Virus genome (UHGV): UHGV-1779463
Strand: one strand, 5' to 3'
Source: a virus
DNA length: 12,399 nucleotides
Positions within the stretch are counted from its first letter, which is position 1. Every line of letters begins with the position of its first letter. A program made the translations under genes and the position numbers. The notes beneath the pieces are model-generated. The model did not search any database. It saw only the letters and a program-made list of their open reading frames with translations, and had not been told where the DNA came from. Below are positions 1 to 12,399 of the stretch, in pieces.

Positions 1-197
1 ATTTACGGTTTTTATGTGGTTTTAGGGATAAACACAAGGATGGTGTCCCCTGCAGGAATCGAAAATTAAACTAAAAGATTGAATTATAACTTATTTGTCT
101 TTCGATTTTGGTGGGTGCCCCAGTAGGTGCCCCCAGGTATTATGGTCAGAAATGCTGGCTTTTAGCAGATGAAACAAGCCTGACGACCTTTCAAAGG

Positions 198-824
198 TTA
201 TTCTGATTTTACGACTGACAGCTCACTTTTTATACGGTAGTAAGTCGCTCGGCTGATTCCTGCTGCCTTCATGATGAGTTCAGGTTTTACTCCTTGCTCC
301 AACATCTCTCTAACGATCTCTCGGGCTTCCTGATTTTTCTCCCTGCCAATGTATATTCCTTCGCTTTTAGCTCGCTCAATGCCTTGCTGTTGGCGTTTAC
401 GACGTGTTTCGTAATCCTGCCGTGCCATTGTGGCAAGGATATCAATCAACATGGCATTTACGGCTCTCAGGATGCCGCTGGTTAGGTCATTGCCTGCCAT
501 CTCGACCATCTGCCAGCTCGTTGGTAAATCCATTGATACGATGATTAACCCTTTTCGGTTGAGCGTATCTTTCAGTTCGACCCATGCGCTATGTTCTAGG
601 CGACTCAGACGATCTATAGCTTCCACTAGCAACAGATCGCCGGACTGGGCTTCAGACAATAGCCGCATAAGCTCTACGCGCTCAAGCTTCGCCCCGCTAG
701 CATTTTCTATATACTCTCCTGCAATCTGCCAGCCTTTTGATTTTGAAAATTCACGTAGGCTGGTAAGTGCTCGATCAGCGTGTTGCCCCTCAGTTGATGC
801 TCGGCAGTAAATTCTAACGTTCAT
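198..824 (-). CDS. Serine recombinase (resolvase/invertase family) with C-terminal HTH
   Basis: 208-aa ORF. N-terminal YCRASTEGQ matches the catalytic-serine motif of small serine recombinases; LLVEAIDRLSR matches the conserved D-R-L-x-R segment; C-terminal GISRATYYRI is HTH-like. Start has a weak GAGA Shine-Dalgarno; stop TAA at 198-200. Confidence 0.9.
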   Translation of the reverse strand: MNVRIYCRASTEGQHADRALTSLREFSKSKGWQIAGEYIENASGAKLERVELMRLLSEAQSGDLLLVEAIDRLSRLEHSAWVELKDTLNRKGLIIVSMDLPTSWQMVEMAGNDLTSGILRAVNAMLIDILATMARQDYETRRKRQQQGIERAKSEGIYIGREKNQEAREIVREMLEQGVKPELIMKAAGISRATYYRIKSELSVVKSE

Positions 825-830
825 TGCATT

Positions 831-1080
831 GTCTCAATAGGGTTGTGAATATAAGTGCAAATGATACATAATGCATTTTGTGTAGTCAAAATGTTCCTAT
901 ACAACCCTATTGAGACTTTGTATCACCTTGTCATTACGGTATACCCTATTGAGAGGGGGATGATAGCTGGTAGTTCCGGTTTACCGTTAATCAGGCATAA
1001 CGCAAATTTGCGTTATGCCTCAAACATCAATGTTTACTCTTCCAACTGCCGCTATCTTGCTGGTTCTTGATAACCCTACT
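831..1080. repeat. Cluster of at least four copies of an AACCCTAYTGAGA-like motif upstream of the serine recombinase
   Basis: 831-846 gtctcaatagggttgt is the exact reverse complement of 901-916 acaaccctattgagac (16 bp). A direct 12-bp copy accctattgaga lies at 943-954 and a degenerate copy aaccctact at 1072-1080. The first copy overlaps the recombinase ribosome-binding region. Confidence 0.7.
993..1020. promoter_or_regulatory. 28-bp perfect palindrome, candidate protein-binding site
   Basis: aggcataacgcaaa / tttgcgttatgcct is exactly self-complementary (14+14 bp). No T-tract follows on either strand, so it is unlikely to be an intrinsic terminator. Confidence 0.45.
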
Positions 1081-1187
1081 CATTGGGGGATAGTTGGAAG
1101 AAATAGCCCGACACCGCTTTACCCGTATGGGATAATCATTGACTGTAGCTGGTGGTCAGCCAATCTTAAACATGGAACTTATTGATT

Positions 1188-1394
1188 ATGGAAAAGACAC
1201 TGAAAGAGTTGCGTGAATGGTTGTTACTATCCCCTGGTTATCCCGAAAGCAATCTCGATCTGGAAAGATGGGGATATGATGACTACGCCATTATCGGTAA
1301 TGTAGGTGATGCTGAGGCTATGCTGGGTTTGCCTCCAGATTGCCTGGAGATGGATAAGTCGCAGATTGTTTTCGACACTAGCGATCTTGAATAG
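1188..1394 (+). CDS. Hypothetical small protein (about 68 aa); start uncertain (ATG 1188, or TTG 1182 as in the ORF track)
   Basis: Protein-like composition (MEKTLKELREWLLL...), unlike the overlapping W/C-rich ORF 1306-1566. Weak ribosome-binding site; G+C similar to the backbone rather than the cargo. Confidence 0.35.
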   Translation: MEKTLKELREWLLLSPGYPESNLDLERWGYDDYAIIGNVGDAEAMLGLPPDCLEMDKSQIVFDTSDLE

Positions 1395-1803
1395 CCTAAA
1401 TCATCAATATACACCCCTCTGGGATGTGTTTACATGGTCGGATAAGACAAAATATGAGTATTCGCATCCAGTTGACTACCCATTTGCATGTTGCTTGACC
1501 ATCTTCAGTAACATATGCAGAAGGGTGCGGGCAACCTTAAGCGAGAAGCGGATCTATCAGTCCTAAAGTGCAAAAGGGCGATCTAGTCACATTGAGACAT
1601 TAATTACATTAGGGTATGTTAAGCCCATTGGCGGGCACTATGATGGGTTCAAGTAGGTAATCATCATTTAATGGACTAGTCCTATATAGCCAGAACACAG
1701 ATAGCAAGTTCAGACACCATCTTTTGTACCTCGAAAACTCAAAAAGGATGGGTCAGTTTTAGTCGGCGACAACAGGTTTAAATAAGCAATTTAAGGGGGG
1801 GAT

Positions 1804-2133
1804 ATGGATTTTTTAACAAGTACTCTGCTATCAGGAATACTCTATGATGGGTTTAAGAACGGCGTTGCAATAACTACAGGTTTCTTGAAAGAAAAGCTAC
1901 ATGGATGGATTGTTGACGATACTTTATTGGAGACTTTAGCTTATAAAGTAAATACTCTTGAGCTTAAGGATTATGGAGAGCATGTTATCGAGCGAAAATT
2001 GAACGAATCATCAGAAATACAGCAAATTTTAAAACTGATTCAGCCTGAGCAAAACACGAATATTGGGTCAGTGACTCAGAATCACAGTGGTTCTGGTGAT
2101 AACATTATTGGAAACAAAAATATATACAAATAG
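1804..2133 (+). CDS. Small protein (109 aa) with a hydrophobic N-terminal segment and a C-terminal motif HSGSGDNIIGNKNIYK shared with the downstream gene
   Basis: Strong Shine-Dalgarno (aaggggggg) 3-5 nt upstream of the ATG. AT-rich like the downstream large ORF. The C-terminal motif is repeated at the N-terminus of ORF 2146-5430 with many synonymous nucleotide differences, implying protein-level conservation. Confidence 0.7.
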   Translation: MDFLTSTLLSGILYDGFKNGVAITTGFLKEKLHGWIVDDTLLETLAYKVNTLELKDYGEHVIERKLNESSEIQQILKLIQPEQNTNIGSVTQNHSGSGDNIIGNKNIYK

Positions 2134-2145
2134 AAGAAATGGACG

Positions 2146-5100
2146 ATGATGGTAGATCAAATACACAGTGGCGTAGGTGACAATATCATAGGTGATAAAT
2201 ACGAATATATAATTCGTAGTATTAAATCTAGGGATCTGCGGACTGTTATAGACAGTATAATGAGAGATATTTGCTATAGAGAATTAGGCAGAGTTCGTGA
2301 AAAGCTAGACGTTCTTAATAATATTCATTCATTAGAAAATGATGTATATCTACTATTGAATGCTTTGAATGTAAAGCTTGAGTTGGTAAAAGGCTCGATA
2401 TCATCATCAAAAAATGATCTTCTAAAATTGCTACAGAACAATGACCTCCCTGGTGATGTTCGTGAGGTCATTACATCTATATTGATCGATTTGGAATCGA
2501 GAACCTCTGAAGAGTTAGCTAAAAAAAGATATTCAGATTTAAAAATAGATGGGTTCTATCTCAAAGAGGTGTTCTTTGAGCGATTAGCCTCAATGGAAGA
2601 GCTATCTAAAAGCTATCATAACACAGAGGTTTATGATTTATCCGAGCAAGAGTTAACTGGATTAGTTCGCGGTGCTTTAAGAGTCCAAGATTTTGTTTTT
2701 GCGTTTGAACTGGCTCAGAATCTGGATAAGTATTATTCATCCAATAATTCAAGGATTCTTCGGCTATACACTGAAACCTGTTTACTCATAACTCGAAACC
2801 AACGTAATCATTATGTTTCACTTAGTAAACAGGAAAAAGATAATGTTGACCGGTTAATAATCCAATTACTAGCTGATATTGATGACGGAAAAGATGATAG
2901 ATATATCGCTGTTTTAACCAATTTGCTTAAACTTACCTATTTTTCAGATAGTCGACTTTATAATTTAGGAAAGTTGCATATTGATAAAGTTAGGGAGATA
3001 GACTCCTTTTCTGCGGAGTATCTAGAGCAGTCCTCAATAGGAATGAGCACTCCCGATATTAAATTTGAATTAGTATCTGATGTTTTGGATTTGGAAAAGT
3101 TTTCATTTCTTATTTTTGCTATTGAGAATAATCAGATGAAAGCTAAAGACGTAAATAACTGGATAGACAATGGAGGGATAATTGAAACAGGAGATGATTA
3201 TATTAATTCCTTCTTGAACTTGTACCTTAGGGCGCTAGTATGTTCGGTTGACGATAAGAATGAAATCCAACTGCTGGATAAAAAAGCGCAAGATTTTTTA
3301 GAATTAGATTCTAAAAAGTTTATGCTAATAAACCCTGCGAACATATTAAACTTATGCGATAAATTTATTTTATGTAATTTACCATTGAACGCGGTTAATT
3401 ATCTCACCCCATTGTTATCTGATGAAGCTTGGGTATCTCCGATTTTCGAATGTTATCTTAACGCTCTATTTCTCAGTGATAAGATTGATTTATTTTTAAA
3501 TAAAATAAAGCACTTAGAACCATGCGATAAAACAGAGCTAATTTATTTAAGAGAAGCCCAAGTGTACGACCGATTAGATGAATATGAGCTATCAATAAAA
3601 TCGATCAGATTTGCAATTGAAATTTCACCAAACAACCCTTATTCCTGGTACTTATTGCTGCACACATCAAGAAAAAATGGGGGGGATGCGCAATTTCTTA
3701 AAGAAATTGTTTTTGAGATCCCAGAAGTTATTTTTTCTACCTACGATGAGTCAAAGATCACATTAGTTAATGAAATAGCGACTTATATTGATATACACAT
3801 TGCGGAGAGAGTGCTTGTTGATTGGTTTGTCCAAAACCCAGTAAAAGTGGCAAAGCCTTTGACCCAGATTCACGCAAACTCATTGATAAATAGCCAAAAA
3901 GTTAATAGTAATCCACTTGTCCCTAATAAGTGTGGGGATGGTATTACATATTCTGATGGGTTTGAAACATTTACCCGAATTCTTGTACGTGACGTTGAGG
4001 CTAGTCATCCGTGCTTGTTGGAAATAGAGTCACCACTTGGACAGATTCTCGAGAATATGCAGGAAGGAGATTGTTCTGGTGACTTTACAATGATTAAGCG
4101 TGTGCCTCCTTACGTCGCAGTATTTAGGCAGGCTGTGGAGCTTCGCAGTAAAGGTAACGATGGTACTGATGTTTTCAGACAATTTTCTCTACCTCCTCAT
4201 GAAGAGGAATTCATTCCTTATTTTGAGAATATTCTAAAACGATATTCTACGAAAGATAAAGAAAGGGATGCAGTATTGCATACCCCCAATATACCTTTAA
4301 CGATGAAAGGCAATTTTACGGATCCTACAGACCCTGTAAGAGGGGCTATAACACATTTAACGTCAATTACATCAACCAAATATTTGGAGTTATTCAATAG
4401 TGGAGAAGAAACACCAAATAAGGTAATTATTGATGTGTATACGGCTGTTTATTTCTCATTAATGGGTTTTTCTTCAGCTGTAGTAGATTCGAATATAGAA
4501 ATAATTGTATGTAAATATACAAAGCAAGTATTGGAAGGGTGGATTGAAAATATTCTAAGAGAAGACTACATGTCTATAGGTGTATCTGATAAAGGACTTT
4601 ATAGAGTCACATCTGAAGATATTCGAAGGGATTCATGTGATTTTATTCATAATCTCCAGATATTACTTGAATTTGTAACAGTAGAACCGCTGAAACCAGC
4701 AGATACACCAGAGTTATTAGTTAAAGTAAGAGATTTGGTTGATTGGGCTGTTTACTCTACCTTCCAGCTTTCTATAGCAAATAGTATCCCATTGCTTAGC
4801 ATTGACCATTTGATGTGTGAATTAGCGTATAGTTCAGAGTATCCAACGGCAAATATGAATTCCTTTGTCATGAGGATTTTAAACTCTTTATCTTTGCCGG
4901 AAAGAAAAAAAAGCATTCAAACTAACTTATCTTCGGGTACACCTGTTCCAATTTTGTATGATGATATATTATATCTCAGCCGCTCAGCAGAAATTTCTGA
5001 TACATACTTAGTATTCAAGTTTATGGAAAAATATGGAGAAACCATTTCTGCAACAGGATCTTCTCTAAACTACCTAACTGCAATTGTGAGAAACGTAACA

Positions 5101-5430
5101 GTGATGGCTTGCATAGATGGAGCTATTTTAGCTGGTGGTAGAGCACACAATCCACGGTATGATGGATATGTTGAGCATGTTTTTAATTATTGCTGTCGCT
5201 CTGCAATAGTTAATCTGGATGGTGAAACTGCTGAACAAAGATTAGCATTACTAATCTATAATGTAATAGATATGCCTCGAAGAGTTCGTAAATACTTGGA
5301 ATTGATATCATTGCTGACTACTGAGTTCACAATAGGACATTTTCTGGATATTAAAGCATGTAATGAGAGCCTGGTTGCTTGTCAGAATGGTAAAAAAATA
5401 GATGAGCAAGGGAGTATTGAAGCAAGTTAA
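2146..5430 (+). CDS. Large uncharacterised protein (1094 aa), AT-rich, with TPR-like helical repeats and no P-loop; candidate sensor/effector of a defence-type system
   Basis: A 3.3-kb ORF with no antisense ORF of 60 aa or more. N-terminus IHSGVGDNIIGDKYEY repeats the C-terminal motif of the upstream ORF. TPR-like segment around ELIYLREAQVYDRLDEYELSIKSIRFAIEISPNNPYSWYLLL. No GxxxxGK[ST] found on manual scan. Weak ribosome-binding site; starts 12 nt after the upstream stop in the same frame. Confidence 0.9.
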   Translation: MMVDQIHSGVGDNIIGDKYEYIIRSIKSRDLRTVIDSIMRDICYRELGRVREKLDVLNNIHSLENDVYLLLNALNVKLELVKGSISSSKNDLLKLLQNNDLPGDVREVITSILIDLESRTSEELAKKRYSDLKIDGFYLKEVFFERLASMEELSKSYHNTEVYDLSEQELTGLVRGALRVQDFVFAFELAQNLDKYYSSNNSRILRLYTETCLLITRNQRNHYVSLSKQEKDNVDRLIIQLLADIDDGKDDRYIAVLTNLLKLTYFSDSRLYNLGKLHIDKVREIDSFSAEYLEQSSIGMSTPDIKFELVSDVLDLEKFSFLIFAIENNQMKAKDVNNWIDNGGIIETGDDYINSFLNLYLRALVCSVDDKNEIQLLDKKAQDFLELDSKKFMLINPANILNLCDKFILCNLPLNAVNYLTPLLSDEAWVSPIFECYLNALFLSDKIDLFLNKIKHLEPCDKTELIYLREAQVYDRLDEYELSIKSIRFAIEISPNNPYSWYLLLHTSRKNGGDAQFLKEIVFEIPEVIFSTYDESKITLVNEIATYIDIHIAERVLVDWFVQNPVKVAKPLTQIHANSLINSQKVNSNPLVPNKCGDGITYSDGFETFTRILVRDVEASHPCLLEIESPLGQILENMQEGDCSGDFTMIKRVPPYVAVFRQAVELRSKGNDGTDVFRQFSLPPHEEEFIPYFENILKRYSTKDKERDAVLHTPNIPLTMKGNFTDPTDPVRGAITHLTSITSTKYLELFNSGEETPNKVIIDVYTAVYFSLMGFSSAVVDSNIEIIVCKYTKQVLEGWIENILREDYMSIGVSDKGLYRVTSEDIRRDSCDFIHNLQILLEFVTVEPLKPADTPELLVKVRDLVDWAVYSTFQLSIANSIPLLSIDHLMCELAYSSEYPTANMNSFVMRILNSLSLPERKKSIQTNLSSGTPVPILYDDILYLSRSAEISDTYLVFKFMEKYGETISATGSSLNYLTAIVRNVTVMACIDGAILAGGRAHNPRYDGYVEHVFNYCCRSAIVNLDGETAEQRLALLIYNVIDMPRRVRKYLELISLLTTEFTIGHFLDIKACNESLVACQNGKKIDEQGSIEAS

Positions 5431-5506
5431 TCATTGTCAGATGAACTATTATAGTGATTGGATTTAGAACAATCAAAAATATAAATTGGTACAAGCTGTG
5501 TCCCTT

Positions 5507-5537
5507 AACCAATGATGTGACCTGCTCGTCATTGGTT
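5507..5537 (+). terminator. Hairpin downstream of the large ORF (9-bp stem aaccaatga/tcattggtt, 13-nt loop); weak terminator candidate
   Basis: Exact 9-bp inverted repeat about 80 bp after the stop at 5430, followed by tttattcc. The stem is AT-rich and the loop long, so confidence is low. Confidence 0.25.
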
Positions 5538-6020
5538 TATTCCTAACGTCCGCTTTAGGCACAGCCGACTGCCAGGTACTGCCAGGTAAGGTATCAATAT
5601 CGCCCGTCTGACCTGAGGATCATCATTGGATTTATTTTTGGGATGGTTAAGTAACATGTTAAAGGAAACTAACTCAGGTACAATTATGCAAAAAATTGCT
5701 TCTATGTGGTTTAAATTCACGACTGAGATTTCTACGTGAATTCAACCTAAGAAATACCGGTAAAATCGCTTATAAAGTTGATGTTATGTTGATGGTTTTT
5801 TTCTGGGGTTTTGATTGCCAGATATCTCTATTGGATTGTTTTTTATGTAATTAATGATGAGCTTAAGCGATGCCTGCTAACGTCAACACATTCTTATAAA
5901 GTGATTAATTTCTATAAGTACTTTTTCTAAAAAATTGATTTTTACGGATGGATGCCCATCAATGGAAAATCATTTTTTTCTAAGACTTTGATCTTTTATT
6001 GATGGTGTTAGTTGGGACTC

Positions 6021-6052
6021 CGGTCATCGAGCGCGATGCGCTCTTCTGACCG
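6021..6052. other. GC-rich interrupted stem-loop
   Basis: cggtca-tc-gagcgc-gat-gcgctc-ttc-tgaccg: outer 6-bp and inner 6-bp stems are exact reverse complements. Followed on the plus strand by tttcaatg. Lies in the convergent intergenic region, orientation ambiguous. Confidence 0.3.
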
Positions 6053-6183
6053 TTTCAATGGATAGGTTCGCCTTCTTGCGCCTCTCGCTGCGTTTGCCGC
6101 GCTCCGCGCTTTTGGCTGTTTGGCAGGCATATTTCTCTTATTATTGGTCGTTTTTTGCTCTGCCTTGTCACGATCTGTCACTA

Positions 6184-7236
6184 CTAGTAGTAATGGTCAT
6201 AACCTCCGCTTTCTCTTCTGGCTCTGGATGCTCTCACTCGTGCTTTTCTTAACATCCTTAACAGCGGGTGGGTTTGTACTTTGTTCGAGTTTATTATCTG
6301 TGAGGATAGTAACTCCCTACGCTCTGTCTCTGCCTCTTTGGTGACCGCTATCACTGATAAGTCCCAATCGTGCTTGCTAATTAACGGTGCTTCGAATGGG
6401 GCGATTGGTGAGCGATTTATGTCTTGCCGTTTTAATGTACGCTGTATCTGCCGCTTAGATTTGTAGTTGTCTTTCCTTGATGCCTGAACGGCTTTTAGTA
6501 TGCGTCTTACAGCATGAAAGCCAGTGACAGAAAGTGTTTCTTTTTTTATCTCATGCCGCGCCCAGCCATTCGAATAACCCCAAACGCTGGCATCTGACCA
6601 ATCATATAGGCTCTTGCTCGCCTCTCTATTAAAGTCATTTAACTTAGTTTCGGGCTTTGCCATGTAATCAATTTGTTTACCTATATGCTTGGTAGGCTCT
6701 GAATATTGCTGACCTTTCAAATCTAGATCCCACTGAGGAGGAACATTTGATGGGATTGCATTGTTTGCCAGTGTTACCCATTTGCTGACAATTTTGCCAG
6801 CTTGCCCATTAATGCTTCTTTCGTTCACCATGATTATTGCGTGTACATGCGGCTCTGACTGGTGTTGAGCCCACTCCATGACGTAAACCCACTGATTGCC
6901 TTTCGAAGTCAACCATCTGGTAAGTGCCTTTAACGCTTTGTTGAATTTCTCTGGCGTTGTTCCCTTAACGGGTCTGAAGGTAAAGGAGTAGGGGATACCA
7001 CTAGTTGATTCGACATCCAGAGTAAACAAAGCTCGCCTCATTGTACGCCATTTCTTCTTTGTCCAGGCTGGTGGTATGCAGTGGTTAGCCTTTGATGATT
7101 GGCGTTTATTCTCTGCCTTTAATTCATTACGTTTGTGCGTAACTGATTTCACATAAGCTAATGTGCGACCATTGATGTGATTGATTACGGCTTGTGATTT
7201 TGTGGATAGACTCGCGTCTTTATCGTATAATTCCAT
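6184..7236 (-). CDS. HUH-motif replication-initiator-like protein (rolling-circle Rep / inovirus Gp2-like)
   Basis: 350-aa ORF with three motifs in canonical Rep order and spacing: ALFTLDV (motif I-like), EPHVHAIIMV (His-hydrophobic-His) and IDYMAKP (YxxK catalytic tyrosine). No clear Shine-Dalgarno. Confidence 0.75.
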   Translation of the reverse strand: MELYDKDASLSTKSQAVINHINGRTLAYVKSVTHKRNELKAENKRQSSKANHCIPPAWTKKKWRTMRRALFTLDVESTSGIPYSFTFRPVKGTTPEKFNKALKALTRWLTSKGNQWVYVMEWAQHQSEPHVHAIIMVNERSINGQAGKIVSKWVTLANNAIPSNVPPQWDLDLKGQQYSEPTKHIGKQIDYMAKPETKLNDFNREASKSLYDWSDASVWGYSNGWARHEIKKETLSVTGFHAVRRILKAVQASRKDNYKSKRQIQRTLKRQDINRSPIAPFEAPLISKHDWDLSVIAVTKEAETERRELLSSQIINSNKVQTHPLLRMLRKARVRASRARRESGGYDHYY

Positions 7237-7265
7237 GTGTAAAGTTCATATATTTCAATTGCTTC

Positions 7266-7292
7266 AAAGCCGACTCTCGCAAAGTCGGCTTT
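7266..7292. other. 10-bp perfect inverted repeat hairpin (aaagccgact ... agtcggcttt) between the 128-aa ORF and the Rep-like gene
   Basis: Exact reverse-complement arms with a 7-nt loop. On the plus strand it is followed by ctgctttg; on the minus strand it sits between a stop at 7305 and a start at 7236. Could be a terminator/attenuator or operator. Confidence 0.35.
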
Positions 7293-7304
7293 CTGCTTTG
7301 TCAA

Positions 7305-7691
7305 TCACAGGTATTTGGTTTCAATACCCTTGTAAACAGTTCTAAGCGTGTCTTCAGGCACTTTACCCACCAGCCCACGCAACAACGACAACGTTATGTT
7401 TACCTTACGCAATGTCTTTACATATCTGGCGTTCGTCCTCCAGATCTTCAATGTTTCGTCTTTATCGCTGTGGTATGCTTCTAAATTGCGTTCTGTGACG
7501 TGATACGCCCCTGTTTTAAACTGCTCAACAGGAATTCCCCAATCGTTGCGTAACAGCGTTAAAACGCGACTACGTTCGTGATTTCCGGCTTTCCTTAATA
7601 TGTCGTCAAACTCTTTTGGGGTAAGCTTCCTGCCACTTAGTAGGATATCGCGTATATTCGCGGCGACCTGAGAGCGTGTAAGAGTGCTCAT
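7305..7691 (-). CDS. Hypothetical protein (128 aa)
   Basis: Strong Shine-Dalgarno (ggggggacgaa before the ATG); 4-nt overlap with the upstream HTH gene, suggesting translational coupling. No recognisable motif. Confidence 0.6.
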   Translation of the reverse strand: MSTLTRSQVAANIRDILLSGRKLTPKEFDDILRKAGNHERSRVLTLLRNDWGIPVEQFKTGAYHVTERNLEAYHSDKDETLKIWRTNARYVKTLRKVNITLSLLRGLVGKVPEDTLRTVYKGIETKYL

Positions 7692-7882
7692 TTTCGTCCC
7701 CCCAGAAATCTGTCGGCAAATTGATCAAGGCAGGAGGCAAGCCACACCCGGCGCTTGCGACCATTGATGGTCTGATTTATATAGGGAGGAAAGCTTCGGA
7801 TATATCGCTTTAACTGATAGAAGCGTGACAGACAGACGCCAAGATATTCTGCTGCGTCTTTAGCGGTCAGGTAATTAATCAT
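7688..7882 (-). CDS. Small helix-turn-helix DNA-binding protein (excisionase/HTH_17-like)
   Basis: N-terminal LTAKDAAEYLGV followed by a basic GRKRRVW segment is the typical pattern of excisionase-type HTH proteins. Shine-Dalgarno AGGGA 5 nt upstream. Confidence 0.65.
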   Translation of the reverse strand: MINYLTAKDAAEYLGVCLSRFYQLKRYIRSFPPYINQTINGRKRRVWLASCLDQFADRFLGGRK

Positions 7883-7963
7883 TTTATTCCCTTACTGTTG
7901 TACCAAAATGCAATACGGAGGAGACTTCCTGTCTCCCCAAATTACTCTACAATTTTTGTGCGA

Positions 7964-8155
7964 TTAAATCAGATCTATTACTAAGTAATCATCGCCAGAG
8001 GCAATGCCGATAGCTTTTCCACCGCTGGTGGATTTCACATCATAAACCCTGGTGCTGGTGCTCACCTTTTGTGGCTCTGATCTAATCAGTGCCGCGAAGG
8101 TTTCAAAATCAACATGGGTTACGTTCAGCTTTTGATTGGTAGGTTTCAACTGCAT
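7964..8155 (-). CDS. Hypothetical small protein (63 aa)
   Basis: ORF co-oriented within the element backbone; weak ribosome-binding site; no recognisable motif. Confidence 0.4.
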   Translation of the reverse strand: MQLKPTNQKLNVTHVDFETFAALIRSEPQKVSTSTRVYDVKSTSGGKAIGIASGDDYLVIDLI

Positions 8156-8203
8156 TCTTAATACCTAATAACGTATTGTTTGTATCCTGTTTGTTTCTGT
8201 TCT

Positions 8204-8395
8204 TTAGTTGCTACGCGATTCGGCTATACGTTGATCGATCCAGTCATCGATCTCGCTTTCAATAAAAGCTATTGCGCGAGCACCAATCTTGACTGATTGG
8301 GGGAATTGTCCTCGGCTCATCAGAGCATATACCCACGCCTTGCTATAGCCAGTGCGTTTCAAAACCTCAGATAGCCGAATCAGCGACTTTTTCAT
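8204..8395 (-). CDS. alpA: AlpA-family phage transcriptional regulator
   Basis: 63 aa. IRLSEVLKRTGYSKAWVYALMSRGQFPQSVKIGARAIAFIESEIDDWI matches the AlpA pattern (HTH, then P-x-K-I/L-G-x-R-A-x-A-W-x-E-S-E-I-D/E-x-W). Shine-Dalgarno GAGGT 5 nt upstream. Confidence 0.85.
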   Translation of the reverse strand: MKKSLIRLSEVLKRTGYSKAWVYALMSRGQFPQSVKIGARAIAFIESEIDDWIDQRIAESRSN

Positions 8396-8462
8396 ATCTA
8401 CCTCGTAATACGTTGCTTGACTATGTGAGATAGTAAATCATTGTTTTTTTAAGTTTTCTGTG

Positions 8463-8595
8463 AATTTGGAGAAAAAATTTTTGGGAATAGAATTACCCCA
8501 AATTGGGCGTTATTTTTTAGTTCTAACGCACAATTTGGGAACATCCTTCCTTTATTTTGGACGCTTTTTGGTTGCTTTGTTCTTAAATTTGGGGG
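8463..8595. repeat. Iterated AATTTGG(G) motifs in the alpA-upstream region
   Basis: Exact aatttgg at 8463-8469, 8532-8538 and 8586-8592; an inverted copy within cccaaattggg (8498-8507); variants at about 8478 and 8554. Some copies extend into the 3' end of the 251-aa ORF. Confidence 0.45.
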
Positions 8596-9307
8596 CGTAC
8601 TTATCCAAAGCGTTCGTTAGCAATCTCCGAAATGTATCTGGGTGGGTATCGCTGTCTTCATCGTTCCCGAATATTATGTTGTTTTCTATTACTTGGGCAC
8701 TAACCCTATTGATACTAAGGTTTCCTCCACTATGGAAATCTTTGCTTGATTCAAATAAGGCAATCGCCATTCCGGCGATCATCTTTAAAGCCGTATCTTT
8801 TCCTCTCCAGTTTTGTTCTCTTTCTACTTTTTTTGACAGTGCTCCAATTTCTGGTTCGTTATCTGGAACATTCATATCCAGTTCTGGAAAGAAGTTCACA
8901 ACCTCGGATCGCTTGAAATAAAACGAATCGTAAGACCCATACCAATCATCCTCATCATCGTGATATAAAAAGTCTTCTCCTTTCCTAACGTTGAAAGTCC
9001 CTTCTTCCCCCGGTATCGGGCTCTCCCTGTATTCATGCCCCATAGCCAGAAGACCTAAAAACTCCACACACTGCTTTTCAAAGTCTTCATTTGTCGTAAA
9101 ACCAGATACCCAATCGAACTGATAAAAGCCCAGCCCCCCTAAAGTATCTGGTTTAGTCTTGCTCAATCTGTAGTTACTTAAGATAGCGGCAGCTATCATT
9201 CTTTCATTTTCATTGTTTAGTCTTGCCAGTTCGCTGATCAGATTACCAAACCAGATTTTATCTTCTGACTCGTTATAAAACGCATCTAGTCCTGTCATCT
9301 TAGTCAC
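8552..9307 (-). CDS. Hypothetical protein (251 aa), translationally coupled to the integrase
   Basis: Long ORF. Probable GTG start at 9305-9307 with Shine-Dalgarno gaaggagaa, overlapping the integrase stop by 8 nt (alternative ATG at 9296-9298). Acidic, aromatic-rich sequence with no recognisable motif. Confidence 0.65.
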   Translation of the reverse strand: MTKMTGLDAFYNESEDKIWFGNLISELARLNNENERMIAAAILSNYRLSKTKPDTLGGLGFYQFDWVSGFTTNEDFEKQCVEFLGLLAMGHEYRESPIPGEEGTFNVRKGEDFLYHDDEDDWYGSYDSFYFKRSEVVNFFPELDMNVPDNEPEIGALSKKVEREQNWRGKDTALKMIAGMAIALFESSKDFHSGGNLSINRVSAQVIENNIIFGNDEDSDTHPDTFRRLLTNALDKYAPKFKNKATKKRPK

Positions 9308-10622
9308 GGCGTGTTCTCCTTCCGAACTCGTAAGGGCTTATGTGTATTTCTCGATTGGCGTCCAGATAATCTGCCCACCATTGAAGCATTAGTTTGCGCT
9401 CTTCTAAGTAATCAGCCTTGTGCTTGTAGGCTCTTTTAACGTCTTTATATTCTTTGTGGCTCATCTGGCGCTCTACTGCGTCCTCCTGCCACAAACCGGA
9501 CTCCATCAGGGAACTACAGGCTGTGGCACGGAATCCATGTCCAGTTACGTCCTCTTGCGTGTTATAGCCCATTAAGCGTAATGCCTTGTTTACCGTGTTT
9601 TCACTCATCACGCCTTTGGTGTTTCTTTCATTCGGAAACACAACATCGTAGCTTCCGCTTAGTTCTCTCAACTGCTTTACAATAGAAACAGCCTGACGGC
9701 TAAGAAGCACGATATGTTCGTCTTTTCCCGTCTTTGTGCCACGGGTGGAAAACCTCACACCATCGATAGGCTCTCTTTTTTTAGGGATAATCCACTCAGC
9801 CCGATCAAGGTCAAACTCTTTCCAACGGGCAAACCTTAACTCGCTTGAACGAACAAAGGTCAACATGGTTAGCTCAATGGCAAGGCGGGTAAGAGGATTA
9901 CCTTTAAAGCTGCCCAATCGAGTGAAAAAGTCTGGTAAATCTCTGGGATGTAGTGCGGCATGATGCTTAGTTTCATATTGCATTAACCGGACATCGAGAT
10001 CATTCGTGATGATTTCTGTCTTAATGCCGCTCAGACGGGCGCTATGTATGATGTCCTTAACTCGTTGTTTAAGTCGGTTGGCTGTATCGTGTTTCCCGGC
10101 GTCATCTACCTTCTTAAACAAAGGTAAAATTGTCATCGCCTCCAGTTTGCGAATATCCGAAGTGCCAATGTGAGGGAAAATATACATTTCAAGGCTTCTA
10201 AGTACGCGTTTTCGGTGGGCTTCGTTCCACATCTGGTGGCTTTCAACCCATTGACGTCCTATTGTCTCAAAAGTGAATGCACCTTTTTCTTCTGCTTTTG
10301 CTGCTCTTTGCTCTGCTTTGGGATCTATCCCCTTGACTAACAACTTTTTGGCGTTGTCTCGTTTTTCTCTGGCGTCTTGTAAGCTAATGGTTGGATAAGC
10401 CAGTTTGCTAGCCGGGTTTAAGGTGATACCGATCGCCGCAACATTGATGATGGCGTTCTGTGCGCTGGTTGGATTTGCCAGTGCTGTTTTAGCCAGGTAA
10501 TCGTTTTTCTGGAAATACTGAATTGCAAACTGGCTTTCCTTAGCCCATGTCACCGTCTGTTCAGTCAATGCTCCGCAGAATAACTGCTCCTGCTGTTTAA
10601 CGAATTCAACGATATTGCTCAT
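9300..10622 (-). CDS. int: Tyrosine recombinase / phage integrase (P4-like family) with a non-canonical N-terminal ~75 aa
   Basis: C-terminal catalytic signatures are present: VRSSELR (box I Arg), HGFRATACS (H-x-x-R), and RAYKHKADYLEERKLMLQWWADYLD (catalytic Tyr and the MxQ-WADYLD hallmark). The N-terminal arm-binding region is replaced by unrelated sequence. Shine-Dalgarno GGAG 8 nt upstream; ATGA overlap with the upstream ORF. Confidence 0.9.
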   Translation of the reverse strand: MSNIVEFVKQQEQLFCGALTEQTVTWAKESQFAIQYFQKNDYLAKTALANPTSAQNAIINVAAIGITLNPASKLAYPTISLQDAREKRDNAKKLLVKGIDPKAEQRAAKAEEKGAFTFETIGRQWVESHQMWNEAHRKRVLRSLEMYIFPHIGTSDIRKLEAMTILPLFKKVDDAGKHDTANRLKQRVKDIIHSARLSGIKTEIITNDLDVRLMQYETKHHAALHPRDLPDFFTRLGSFKGNPLTRLAIELTMLTFVRSSELRFARWKEFDLDRAEWIIPKKREPIDGVRFSTRGTKTGKDEHIVLLSRQAVSIVKQLRELSGSYDVVFPNERNTKGVMSENTVNKALRLMGYNTQEDVTGHGFRATACSSLMESGLWQEDAVERQMSHKEYKDVKRAYKHKADYLEERKLMLQWWADYLDANREIHISPYEFGRRTRRD

Positions 10623-10930
10623 GCAGCTTCTCCAAAAATGTGTCTGCGTTTGAATATTGCGAAGGCATATTCAGCCTTAACTCTTTCGGTTATTGCATCC
10701 CAGAACCATTCAGCGGCTTTTTCCTGATAGTTACAGTCATCATCTTCCAGCCAGTCGATAGCGTCCTTAGTGTGTTCATCTGGTTTATATGAGCGAAGCA
10801 TTTCGCTTATTGGGTCGCAACGTTTGCAGAGGCGATCAACTTCACTGTTGATTCGTTCGTAATCTTCATCAGTAAAACTTGCGATTATTTGCGATATTTC
10901 ACGCTTATCATTCAGAGTCAGAATCATCAT
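10619..10930 (-). CDS. Hypothetical phage protein (103 aa)
   Basis: Strong Shine-Dalgarno (acaggagaaag before the ATG); its TGA stop overlaps the integrase-ORF ATG. Acidic protein of unknown function. Confidence 0.6.
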   Translation of the reverse strand: MMILTLNDKREISQIIASFTDEDYERINSEVDRLCKRCDPISEMLRSYKPDEHTKDAIDWLEDDDCNYQEKAAEWFWDAITERVKAEYAFAIFKRRHIFGEAA

Positions 10931-11011
10931 CTTTCTCCTGTTCTTTGTGCTGATTGAGCATTTTGTTCATCTGACGAATGAATTCTTCGTCTGACCAGTT
11001 ATCTGTAAAAC

Positions 11012-11182
11012 TCATGGACGGCCTTGTTGTTTCAAAATATCCCAAAGCTTTTCGAGCAAACTTTTCATTCTTGGTTGTTTAAAGTCTGCTCCGGTTAAAA
11101 TATTTTTTCGTGAATGCTGTACCGATAAAATCGGGTTGAAAGGGCGAACCGATGCCGCCCCTGCAATAGCGAACTGTTGCAT
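11012..11182 (-). CDS. Hypothetical small protein (56 aa from the internal ATG; the ORF track extends it to 11287)
   Basis: The internal ATG at 11180-11182 is preceded by a strong Shine-Dalgarno (GGAG about 7 nt upstream). The longer 91-aa form begins with a Cys-rich, hydrophobic stretch and has no ribosome-binding site. Confidence 0.45.
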   Translation of the reverse strand: MQQFAIAGAASVRPFNPILSVQHSRKNILTGADFKQPRMKSLLEKLWDILKQQGRP

Positions 11183-11365
11183 AGGATGCTCCTTCTGTTT
11201 GATTGCATAACGAAAACGCCTCGAGTGAAGCGTTATTGGTATGCATATAAAAAGGCCCTCACACTGGAGGGCAAAGAAGATTTCCAATAATCAGAACAAG
11301 TCGGCTCCTGTTTAGTTACGAGCGACATTGCTCACATAGCAGACTCGCAAATCTACTATAGGTGC

Positions 11366-11524
11366 TTATTCGCATCGCATGACAACATCAAATTTTTCGA
11401 GATTACTTTGTCGCAACAATCCCTCTTCTACGCGGTCAGCTTTTCTATAATTATCAAATTCGAAATGTTTAATTACTTCTTTCGTTTCTCGCTCTATAAC
11501 TTCAACGATGTATTTCTTATTCAT
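11366..11524 (-). CDS. Hypothetical small protein (52 aa), not in the supplied ORF track
   Basis: Hand translation gives MNKKYIVEVIERETKEVIKHFEFDNYRKADRVEEGLLRQSNLEKFDVVMRCE. Shine-Dalgarno AGGTGA 6 nt upstream; its ATG overlaps the stop of the upstream gene by one nucleotide. Confidence 0.4.
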   Translation of the reverse strand: MNKKYIVEVIERETKEVIKHFEFDNYRKADRVEEGLLRQSNLEKFDVVMRCE

Positions 11525-11820
11525 TACTCATCACCTATGGCTTTTCTGATTGCTGCGAGACCTTTATTAACAGCTCCATACCATTCTGGATATGTTGTCG
11601 TTGTTCTATTTTTGGTTTGCTTAAGTAATAACTGAAGTGCTTCGAGAAGGTCAGGTGCTGCCGCTATTAGATTGGCATCTTCAATGCATTGAACTTCCTC
11701 ACAGATTGCAATATACGAACGCCAGCCTGCGCCATTTTCAAGTGAGTCTGCCTGGATTATTTTAATCTCATCGTCATCCATCATTATTTCCCACTTACCT
11801 TCAGTACCTTTAAATTCCAT
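11524..11820 (-). CDS. Small phage protein (about 98 aa) with an AAPDLLEAL motif, reminiscent of Ead/Ea22-like early proteins
   Basis: The ATG at 11818-11820 has a GAGG Shine-Dalgarno 6 nt upstream; the ORF-track extension to 11940 overlaps the upstream gene and passes through a terminator-like hairpin. The family name is recalled from the motif, not verified. Confidence 0.55.
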   Translation of the reverse strand: MEFKGTEGKWEIMMDDDEIKIIQADSLENGAGWRSYIAICEEVQCIEDANLIAAAPDLLEALQLLLKQTKNRTTTTYPEWYGAVNKGLAAIRKAIGDE

Positions 11821-11840
11821 GTTAGCCTCTGTTGTTAGTG

Positions 11841-11868
11841 CCAAAAATAAAGGCCGACTATGCGGCCT
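11841..11868 (-). terminator. Intrinsic-terminator-like hairpin after the 156-aa gene
   Basis: Minus strand reads AGGCCG-CATAGT-CGGCCT followed by TTATTTTTGG: a 6-bp GC-rich stem, 6-nt loop and T-tract. The stem overlaps the TAG stop at 11867-11869. Confidence 0.45.
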
Positions 11869-12337
11869 AGTAGAATACCCAATTTTCTGTTTCTTGGTTG
11901 TGTCCAAAGTTATATTCAATATCTGGTGTTGATGTATCAATATTCTTCATCCCATCAACAAGAGTTGATACAACAGCCAAATCTTGTTTGATTCTCATTA
12001 AATGGTATTTCTTCCGGCGCAATAAACTCTCAATGGCAAGTTTCTTCGTTGGGAATGCAAAAGATCTTTCTGCATTTTTTGCTACTTTCTTAATTGCATA
12101 TCTATTTCTCCTTTGTTTCCATTCCCGTAACCACTGATTTGGTGCTGGTTTAAAATCAACAATCCAATGCGCAGGAACCAACCATGCATAATGCTCTGTC
12201 TGATGAAAAGCTATATATTGAAGTGCGAATATTTTGATTCCATCTTCTTCAACTGTCGCTTGGAATCTCCAGAAAACAGGCATTCCATCATGTTCAGTTT
12301 CTGATTCAGGAAAAGGTACGCTCCATGATTTTGTCAT
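11867..12337 (-). CDS. Hypothetical phage protein (156 aa)
   Basis: Strong Shine-Dalgarno (GAGGTGA 3-4 nt before the ATG); protein-like composition; followed by a terminator-like hairpin. Confidence 0.6.
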   Translation of the reverse strand: MTKSWSVPFPESETEHDGMPVFWRFQATVEEDGIKIFALQYIAFHQTEHYAWLVPAHWIVDFKPAPNQWLREWKQRRNRYAIKKVAKNAERSFAFPTKKLAIESLLRRKKYHLMRIKQDLAVVSTLVDGMKNIDTSTPDIEYNFGHNQETENWVFY

Positions 12338-12399
12338 ATCTCACCTCAAATAAGTGGTTTGCTGCCTAATTTCATTTTCTGGCGACCAACACAAGTCAT

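Follow-up and report, generated by a model that had tools for sequence, protein, structure and literature searches.

The locus described here raises the question of how a P4-family integrase gene came to carry a foreign-looking N-terminus. The window, that is the whole stretch of 12,399 nucleotides that was analyzed, contains an open reading frame of 440 amino acids on the minus strand (9300..10622). A sequence-only reading had placed the foreign N-terminus at 10390-10622 and had offered two explanations, either the fusion of a phage recT 5′ fragment with a 5′-truncated integrase by deletion or recombination, or simply a divergent native N-terminal domain. Based on the open reading frame list, a three-way protein alignment and residue bookkeeping, the frame is described as RecT(1-76)::Int(64-428). 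Both parents could be aligned, which supports the fusion, and through these alignments the ORF at 9300-10622 was confirmed as a chimera of a RecT N-terminus and a truncated integrase. The joint lies at 10394-10397, inside the proposed interval, and residues 1-76 are those of RecT.

Parentage of the two halves

The 5′ segment comprises codons 1-75 (10398..10622, minus strand) and is of lambdoid/P22-like prophage origin, as judged by DNA and amino acid identity and by PHROG 148. Residues 1-76 of the chimera were identical to the N-terminus of RecT from phage mEpX1 (76/76 amino acids), and the DNA from 10394 rightwards was 99.3% identical to this phage over 940 bp. The profile PHROG 148, 'RecT-like ssDNA annealing protein', matched chimera residues 3-76 (E 8e-15). 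In Pfam, full-length mEpX1 RecT matched PF03837 (E 3.7e-32). An N-terminal fragment of 82 amino acids alone gave no PF03837 match at E <= 1 in the same database, which is attributed to its short length, about a quarter of the profile being covered. The RecT origin of the fragment was thus settled through its identity to an intact RecT and through the PHROG profile. A PDB sequence search for a solved relative of RecT found none. The donor had been suspected to be RecT- or Red-beta-like; the assignment to the RecT family (PF03837) holds, and Red-beta was not the donor. The chimera retains 76 of the 303 RecT residues, which cover about 46 of 198 positions in the PF03837 domain. The complete annealing domain (about 198 profile positions, residues 31-217 in the intact protein) is absent.

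The 3′ segment consists of codons 64-428 plus the stop codon of a P4/CP4-type tyrosine integrase from an island at argW (9300..10397, minus strand). From residue 76 to residue 440, the chimera has the same sequence as residues 64-428 of the 428-aa integrase WP_000089393.1 of Escherichia coli 99-3165, and the DNA is 100% identical to int of this strain and of many other genomes up to 10397. The integrase homology begins at residue 76 (Y-PTISLQDAREKRD), and this late start, which had been seen from the letters, was reproduced both by Pfam and by alignment to the intact relative. An integrase PHROG matched residues 82-428. The segment retains the central and catalytic domains and, in front of them, the end of the arm-binding domain. 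Arm-DNA-bind_3 (PF13356) was found on residues 76-108 with only profile positions 51-83 of 83 (31.6 bits), and the intact integrase gave positions 1-83 with 100.3 bits. Phage_int_M (PF22022, E 1e-18) and Phage_integrase (PF00589, E 8e-17) are both retained. The loss therefore amounts to about 50 of 83 Pfam positions, so that the arm-binding N-terminus, thought to be missing altogether, is gone for these positions but remains for the last ~33. The N-terminal 76 amino acids themselves do not align to an arm-binding domain. The solved N-terminal domains 3JU0 and 3JTZ aligned to residues 8-96 and 8-88 of the intact integrase, respectively, of which residues 1-63 are deleted in the chimera. As had been remarked, the integrase homology has no ATG close to its beginning; the first Met codon occurs around residue 131.

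The start of the frame is that of a phage gene. Directly upstream lies a phage gene on the same strand (10619..10930; PHROG 3486, E 4e-59), whose stop overlaps the start codon of the chimera by ATGA. The coupling of the upstream gene into the ORF was correctly recognized before, and the same arrangement is present in mEpX1 and in intact prophages.

The joint and its occurrence

A three-way DNA alignment of the raw sequences revealed a microhomology at 10394..10397, which reads GATA on the plus strand and TATC on the coding strand. On the coding strand, the sequences around the joint are GCT TAT C-TG in recT, GTA TAT C-CA in int and GCT TAT CCA in the window (hyphens mark the end of the shared bases). 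The TATC encodes the common Tyr76 and the first base of Pro77. In a megablast search of 5,426 complete E. coli genomes, homology to the island stopped at 10397, and homology to recT-bearing phages and prophages begins at 10394; for each parent the homology breaks at this single point. Alignment to intact relatives of both parents, which had been recommended for locating the breakpoint, narrowed it to 4 bp, and the crossover is placed by this alignment within the microhomology TATC. By chance, one in three such joints is in frame.

The exact 440-aa protein was found on at least 12 contigs in ENA and Logan assemblies. Seven places from seven samples are shown, and six of them matched the window across the joint with 100% or almost 100% identity; the joint thus recurs in independent samples. 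Samples that carry it include ERZ15610526, ERZ920118/ERR1018312 and SRR33884546. As these copies are clonal but for one, nothing tested shows selection for the in-frame fusion. Among the 5,426 complete E. coli genomes, megablast detected no copy of the joint, and an exact 38-mer of the joint was absent from GTDB species representatives, IMG/VR and JGI metagenomes. Against phages and plasmids, megablast of the joint returned the recT half only. The exact 440-aa protein was also absent from NCBI protein records. The absence of the fusion from NCBI proteins and complete genomes indicates a rare lineage, and because the joint is missing from the complete genomes as well as from GTDB, IMG/VR and JGI, the whole composite is undocumented in any finished genome.

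That no finished genome has the joint, and that the window is identical to metagenome contigs, would fit an assembly chimera, and a divergent native integrase domain was weighed together with it. The exact protein and the joint are, however, carried by the 12 or more contigs from different samples and assemblers (ENA, Logan). The complete identity of the N-terminus to phage RecT excludes a divergent domain, and the phage DNA is 99% identical right up to the joint. We regard both possibilities as extremely improbable; the second, which had been the alternative proposed beforehand, is refuted.

The one copy that differs is a contig from ERZ1745057 with 3x coverage. Joint and protein are the same, but starting 31 bp to the right of the joint the recT sequence is that of another natural allele. 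Its recT-side bases G10428, A10503 and T10590 are also known from other intact recT genes, and C10485 likewise belongs to this allele. Beyond 11555 the phage context is a different one, and on the island side 1 of 3,539 bases differs. Three readings fit this pattern, namely gene conversion extending to where the homology ends, an assembly that mixed in a co-resident prophage, or recurrence of the joint. With this allele next to the joint on the contig, a single random event would suffice only if gene conversion had followed or the assembly were mixed.

A defence island at argW and the adjoining prophage

To the left of the joint lies the body of a genomic island inserted at the tRNA-Arg gene argW (64..10397). 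It has a length of ~10.3 kb and lacks the int 5′ end, the int promoter region with ~165 bp of DNA upstream of int, and the proximal att site. The only repeat left is the distal one (38..63), a 26-bp copy of the tRNA-Arg(CCT) 3′ end plus 3 nt, which is an exact 26-mer common to positions 7449-7474 of comparison locus L001, where it overlaps the tRNA 3′ end. Left of this repeat is host DNA of the dsdC side, and in a longer contig (L002) the LysR-type gene dsdC itself is found beyond it. Among complete E. coli genomes, 229 have the integrase WP_000089393.1 at argW. In E. coli Z1323CEC0010, the island sits directly at argW with int intact, and window positions 999-10397 are 99.96% identical to it.

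The island cargo is a two-gene anti-phage system, GAPS6 (1804..5430, plus strand), assigned by Pfam and RefSeq names. It consists of GapS6a (1804-2133, plus strand; HetE-N, E 3.5e-33) and GapS6b with TPR and PIN domains (2146-5430, plus strand; PIN-TPR-GreABC, E 6e-16). In RefSeq, their counterparts on the islands of strains E2 and Z1323CEC0010, which are 99.9% identical, are named gapS6a and gapS6b. Anti-phage defence activity of GAPS6 has been reported (bioRxiv 10.1101/2023.03.28.534373). All further island genes discussed here lie on the minus strand. A serine recombinase of the resolvase family is encoded at 198..824 (Pfam Resolvase, E 2e-23), a rolling-circle replication-associated protein at 6184..7236 (Pfam REP_ORF2-G2P, E 8e-7, and RefSeq annotation of the homologue) and an AlpA-family regulator at 8204..8395 (Pfam Phage_AlpA, E 3.6e-18). 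A 251-aa protein from the ORF list (8552..9307), whose start overlaps the int 3′ end, matched nothing in Pfam or PHROG; it adjoins int also in loci L001, L016 and L018.

The island core is made up of the P4-type integrase, AlpA, a rolling-circle Rep of the G2P/ORF2 type and several small genes (6184-7236 and 7305-8395, both minus strand). By gene content, this make-up resembles that of a satellite or an integrative mobilizable element. The cargo of sister islands at argW is different; that of strain 23CRST025, for instance, includes a SIR2-family gene. As the cargo differs between sister islands, the element acts as a variable carrier of defence cargo.

To the right of the joint, beyond the recT segment, the window contains the rest of a prophage early-left (pL) operon (10623..12399, minus strand), with 98-99% identity to recT-upstream regions of lambdoid prophages and support from PHROG. 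Contig L002, which extends further, has N, KilA-N, cI and cro to the right of the window. Terminator-like sites on the minus strand were found at 11868-11851, 11272-11255 and 11234-11215, and none was found between 11215 and the fusion start on this strand. The contigs bearing the joint all end within ~3.4 kb right of the window, and none reaches the right end of the prophage. From related genomes we infer that the prophage resided at argW. A derivation of its home site from the closest relatives was rejected, the recT module being mosaic and the corresponding prophages being located at ybhC, sbcB and other sites.

A tandem of the two kinds of element is present elsewhere. In E. coli E2, the order is dsdC, att, the GAPS6 island with intact int, att, torI, a lambdoid pL operon, N and cI, with the pL operon on the same strand as the island int. 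Window positions 1-10397 are 99.92% identical to this locus (L018, 2606-13002), and the identity ends at the breakpoint. The att repeats flanking the intact E2 island are located at L018 positions 2643 and 13353. An island int followed by a torI-type prophage occurs in 36 complete E. coli genomes, E2 included, a number obtained from the 229 genomes with int minus 193 in which int directly abuts argW-yfdC. In strain ZF31, the order is island remnant, att, P22-like prophage, intS and argW. argW is a known lambdoid integration site, and in O157 strain SS52 a lambdoid Stx prophage is located there with its late end adjoining yfdC, which is the same polarity. The tandem prophages that were inspected (E2 and ZF31) have Sak4-like or Erf recombination modules and not recT. 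The tandem in E2 and ZF31 is therefore a precursor of the right type, and the exact precursor is not among them.

The att copy between the two elements in ZF31 (L014, ~12353) has one mismatch (GGATGGCGTCCCCTGCA) to the 26-bp repeat. Past the core it continues as torI-bearing prophage sequence and not as tRNA; thus this prophage seems to make use of the same core.

In E. coli, tandem integration is documented, as are deletions that span tandem prophages or islands (PMC9997748). We consider a microhomology-mediated deletion of ~5-7 kb across the island-prophage boundary to be the best explanation of the locus, and a highly probable one. The length was judged from E2, ZF31 and intact recT prophages. 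The starting point would have been two mobile elements in tandem at argW of an E. coli chromosome, in the order dsdC, att, defence island, att, lambdoid prophage, argW. In such a precursor, int would be the last gene of the island and be transcribed away from the tRNA, and the prophage would follow with its xis/torI end first and its early-left operon on the same strand as int. The deletion ends would then have been joined at the 4-bp TATC, linking Int codon 64 to RecT codon 76. This would have removed the first 63 int codons with the int promoter region, the att site between island and prophage, the genes at the excision end of the prophage and the 3′ three quarters of recT. Because the frames of recT and int happened to match, a single ORF of 440 residues would result. 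The feature is thus best explained as an ordinary scar of prophage decay, left by illegitimate recombination.

The same final map could be reached by a lambda-bio type of aberrant excision. A prophage next to the island would have taken up the island and lost its own segment from int/xis to recT, and the resulting island-carrying defective phage would have lysogenized at argW via the retained att and helper functions. Short-homology joints are typical of the formation of transducing phages, and the observed order of att, island, 'int::recT' and pL operon is the map expected after integration through the att at 38-63. The joint also seems to occur in two phage backgrounds, that of the ERZ1745057 contig versus that of the others, which would be easier to understand if the composite had moved as a phage. 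This route needs extra steps, however, including the packaging of a genome enlarged by ~4-5 kb and a helper integrase, and the joint was matched neither by viral contigs of IMG/VR nor by the phage collection. With an in situ deletion, a single step leads to this map from a layout seen in 36 genomes. We therefore judge aberrant excision to be unlikely.

A different question is whether the position of the break within int was random. Strains ZF31, ZF34 and EC26, from another E. coli clade, have an unrelated deletion by which a truncated dsdC is joined to an int 5′ fragment. This joint (L014 of ZF31, ~11990-12010, and L015 of EC26; equivalent to window ~10395-10399) breaks int at L001 7097-7099 with the microhomology TAT, and so overlaps the window breakpoint, which corresponds to L001 7095-7098. 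In their annotation, strains G4/9 and YPE10 show the same combination of features, a truncated LysR gene next to an Arm-domain fragment and torI. Two unrelated joints within 1-2 nt are a hint that the site may not be random. Accordingly, a recombination hot spot in int (GGTTGGATATACACC, Int codons ~62-66) was considered, of which RecT-Int would be one of several recurrent products. The nick or break might be made by the rolling-circle Rep of the island, by its serine recombinase or by the integrase at a pseudo-site; genes for an HUH-type Rep and a resolvase are indeed present on the island. The other natural recT allele from 31 bp onwards in the ERZ1745057 contig could mean recurrence, but gene conversion up to the homology border would also give this pattern. 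Against a hot spot, only two independent events are known, and the recT and dsdC partners have only 3-4 bp in common with the site. The breakpoint motif, considered as a candidate nick site for Rep or as an origin, did not recur in the island at up to three mismatches. No genome had an insertion at the int site, and the few partial matches seen to a spanning 140-bp probe were all of the dsdC-type joint. In JGI metagenomes, no other joints at the same int nucleotide were detected. A hot spot is very unlikely in our view. We likewise give little credence to the extended proposal that a preferred breakage site GGATAT (Int codons 63-65) is cut repeatedly by enzymes of the island or of a phage, yielding fusions such as RecT::Int and dsdC'::int' time after time, and that island-prophage welding would be a semi-programmed capture of defence cargo by prophages.

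Two further possibilities were considered and rejected. Programmed splitting of int as in SSV-type elements was discarded because the other island end is a normal tRNA-Arg att repeat near dsdC. The ZF31 joint was discarded as the reciprocal product because its partner is dsdC and not the 3′ part of recT.

Probable consequences for both elements and comparison with known systems

The boundary deletion, our preferred explanation, would have consequences for both parents. The chimera would be transcribed and translated with recT signals within the N-antiterminated pL operon. Given the ribosome-binding context of recT and the position in this operon, it is probably made upon prophage induction. 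With only 76 of 303 RecT residues remaining, it would be devoid of annealing activity, and with residues 1-63 of the integrase N-domain missing it would have no arm-binding sheet. Arm-less fragments of lambda Int are the reference case for binding and cutting of core sites without the arm domain. By analogy, the chimera might at best be an arm-independent fragment with core-binding and catalytic function, incapable of directional integration or excision. It is most likely a crippled integrase.

The island has lost the proximal att and the int promoter, and the prophage its excisionase end; hence the two elements would be welded together. The composite is probably immobile or dependent on a helper. 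As no terminator-like site was found between 11215 and the fusion start and the island genes downstream are co-oriented, read-through from pL into the island is possible, and pL transcription may by this arrangement reach the co-oriented island genes. A GAPS6 island can in this way become tied physically, and perhaps transcriptionally, to the SOS-inducible early operon of a prophage, with both elements losing independent mobility. The locus is a worked example in which an 'integrase with a foreign N-terminus' is traced to a deletion that joined a defence island to a prophage at one tRNA site. It would be of broader importance only if the common breakpoint were a real hot spot.

For annotation, the case is a warning that such chimeric ORFs get called full-length integrases. 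At 90% identity, the chimera clusters with the normal 428-aa integrase. The same cluster also lists fragments of Tn3-family transposases, which looks like a clustering artefact, possibly from short partial or chimeric records.

In SSV1-type integrases, attP lies inside int, so that integration splits the gene. Similar to this situation, int is interrupted here after ~64 codons, at the edge of the N-terminal domain. Unlike in SSV1-type elements, int is intact in the normal integrated form of the island and att lies outside it, and no reciprocal joint exists at the other end. The parents themselves differ from the chimera in what they keep. Like P4/CP4-57-type integrases (N-domain structures 3JU0 and 3JTZ/3RMP), it has the sequence of Int 64-428 unchanged, but it is without the first 63 residues, an own promoter and an adjacent att. 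With lambdoid RecT proteins (PF03837; mEpX1 gp34) it shares the start codon, the coupling to the upstream gene and the first 76 residues, and nothing of RecT beyond these.

Lambda bio and gal specialized transducing phages acquire novel joints by short-homology illegitimate recombination. In both cases, the red/recT region is joined to neighbouring non-phage DNA at a microhomology of a few base pairs, and int, xis and part of the recombination genes are lost. In contrast to these phages, the flanking junctions here are ordinary chromosomal ones, and the joint is without a match in IMG/VR.

In overall layout, the locus resembles deletions across tandem elements of E. coli, described for example at ydfJ, ompW, thrW and ssrA of O157:H7 (PMC9997748). 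There, as here, two elements share one tRNA/att locus, and a deletion crossing their boundary leaves a welded, defective composite. The present locus differs in that one partner is a small defence island rather than a second prophage, and in that the joint happens to be in frame and has fused two unrelated genes of DNA recombination into one long hybrid ORF.
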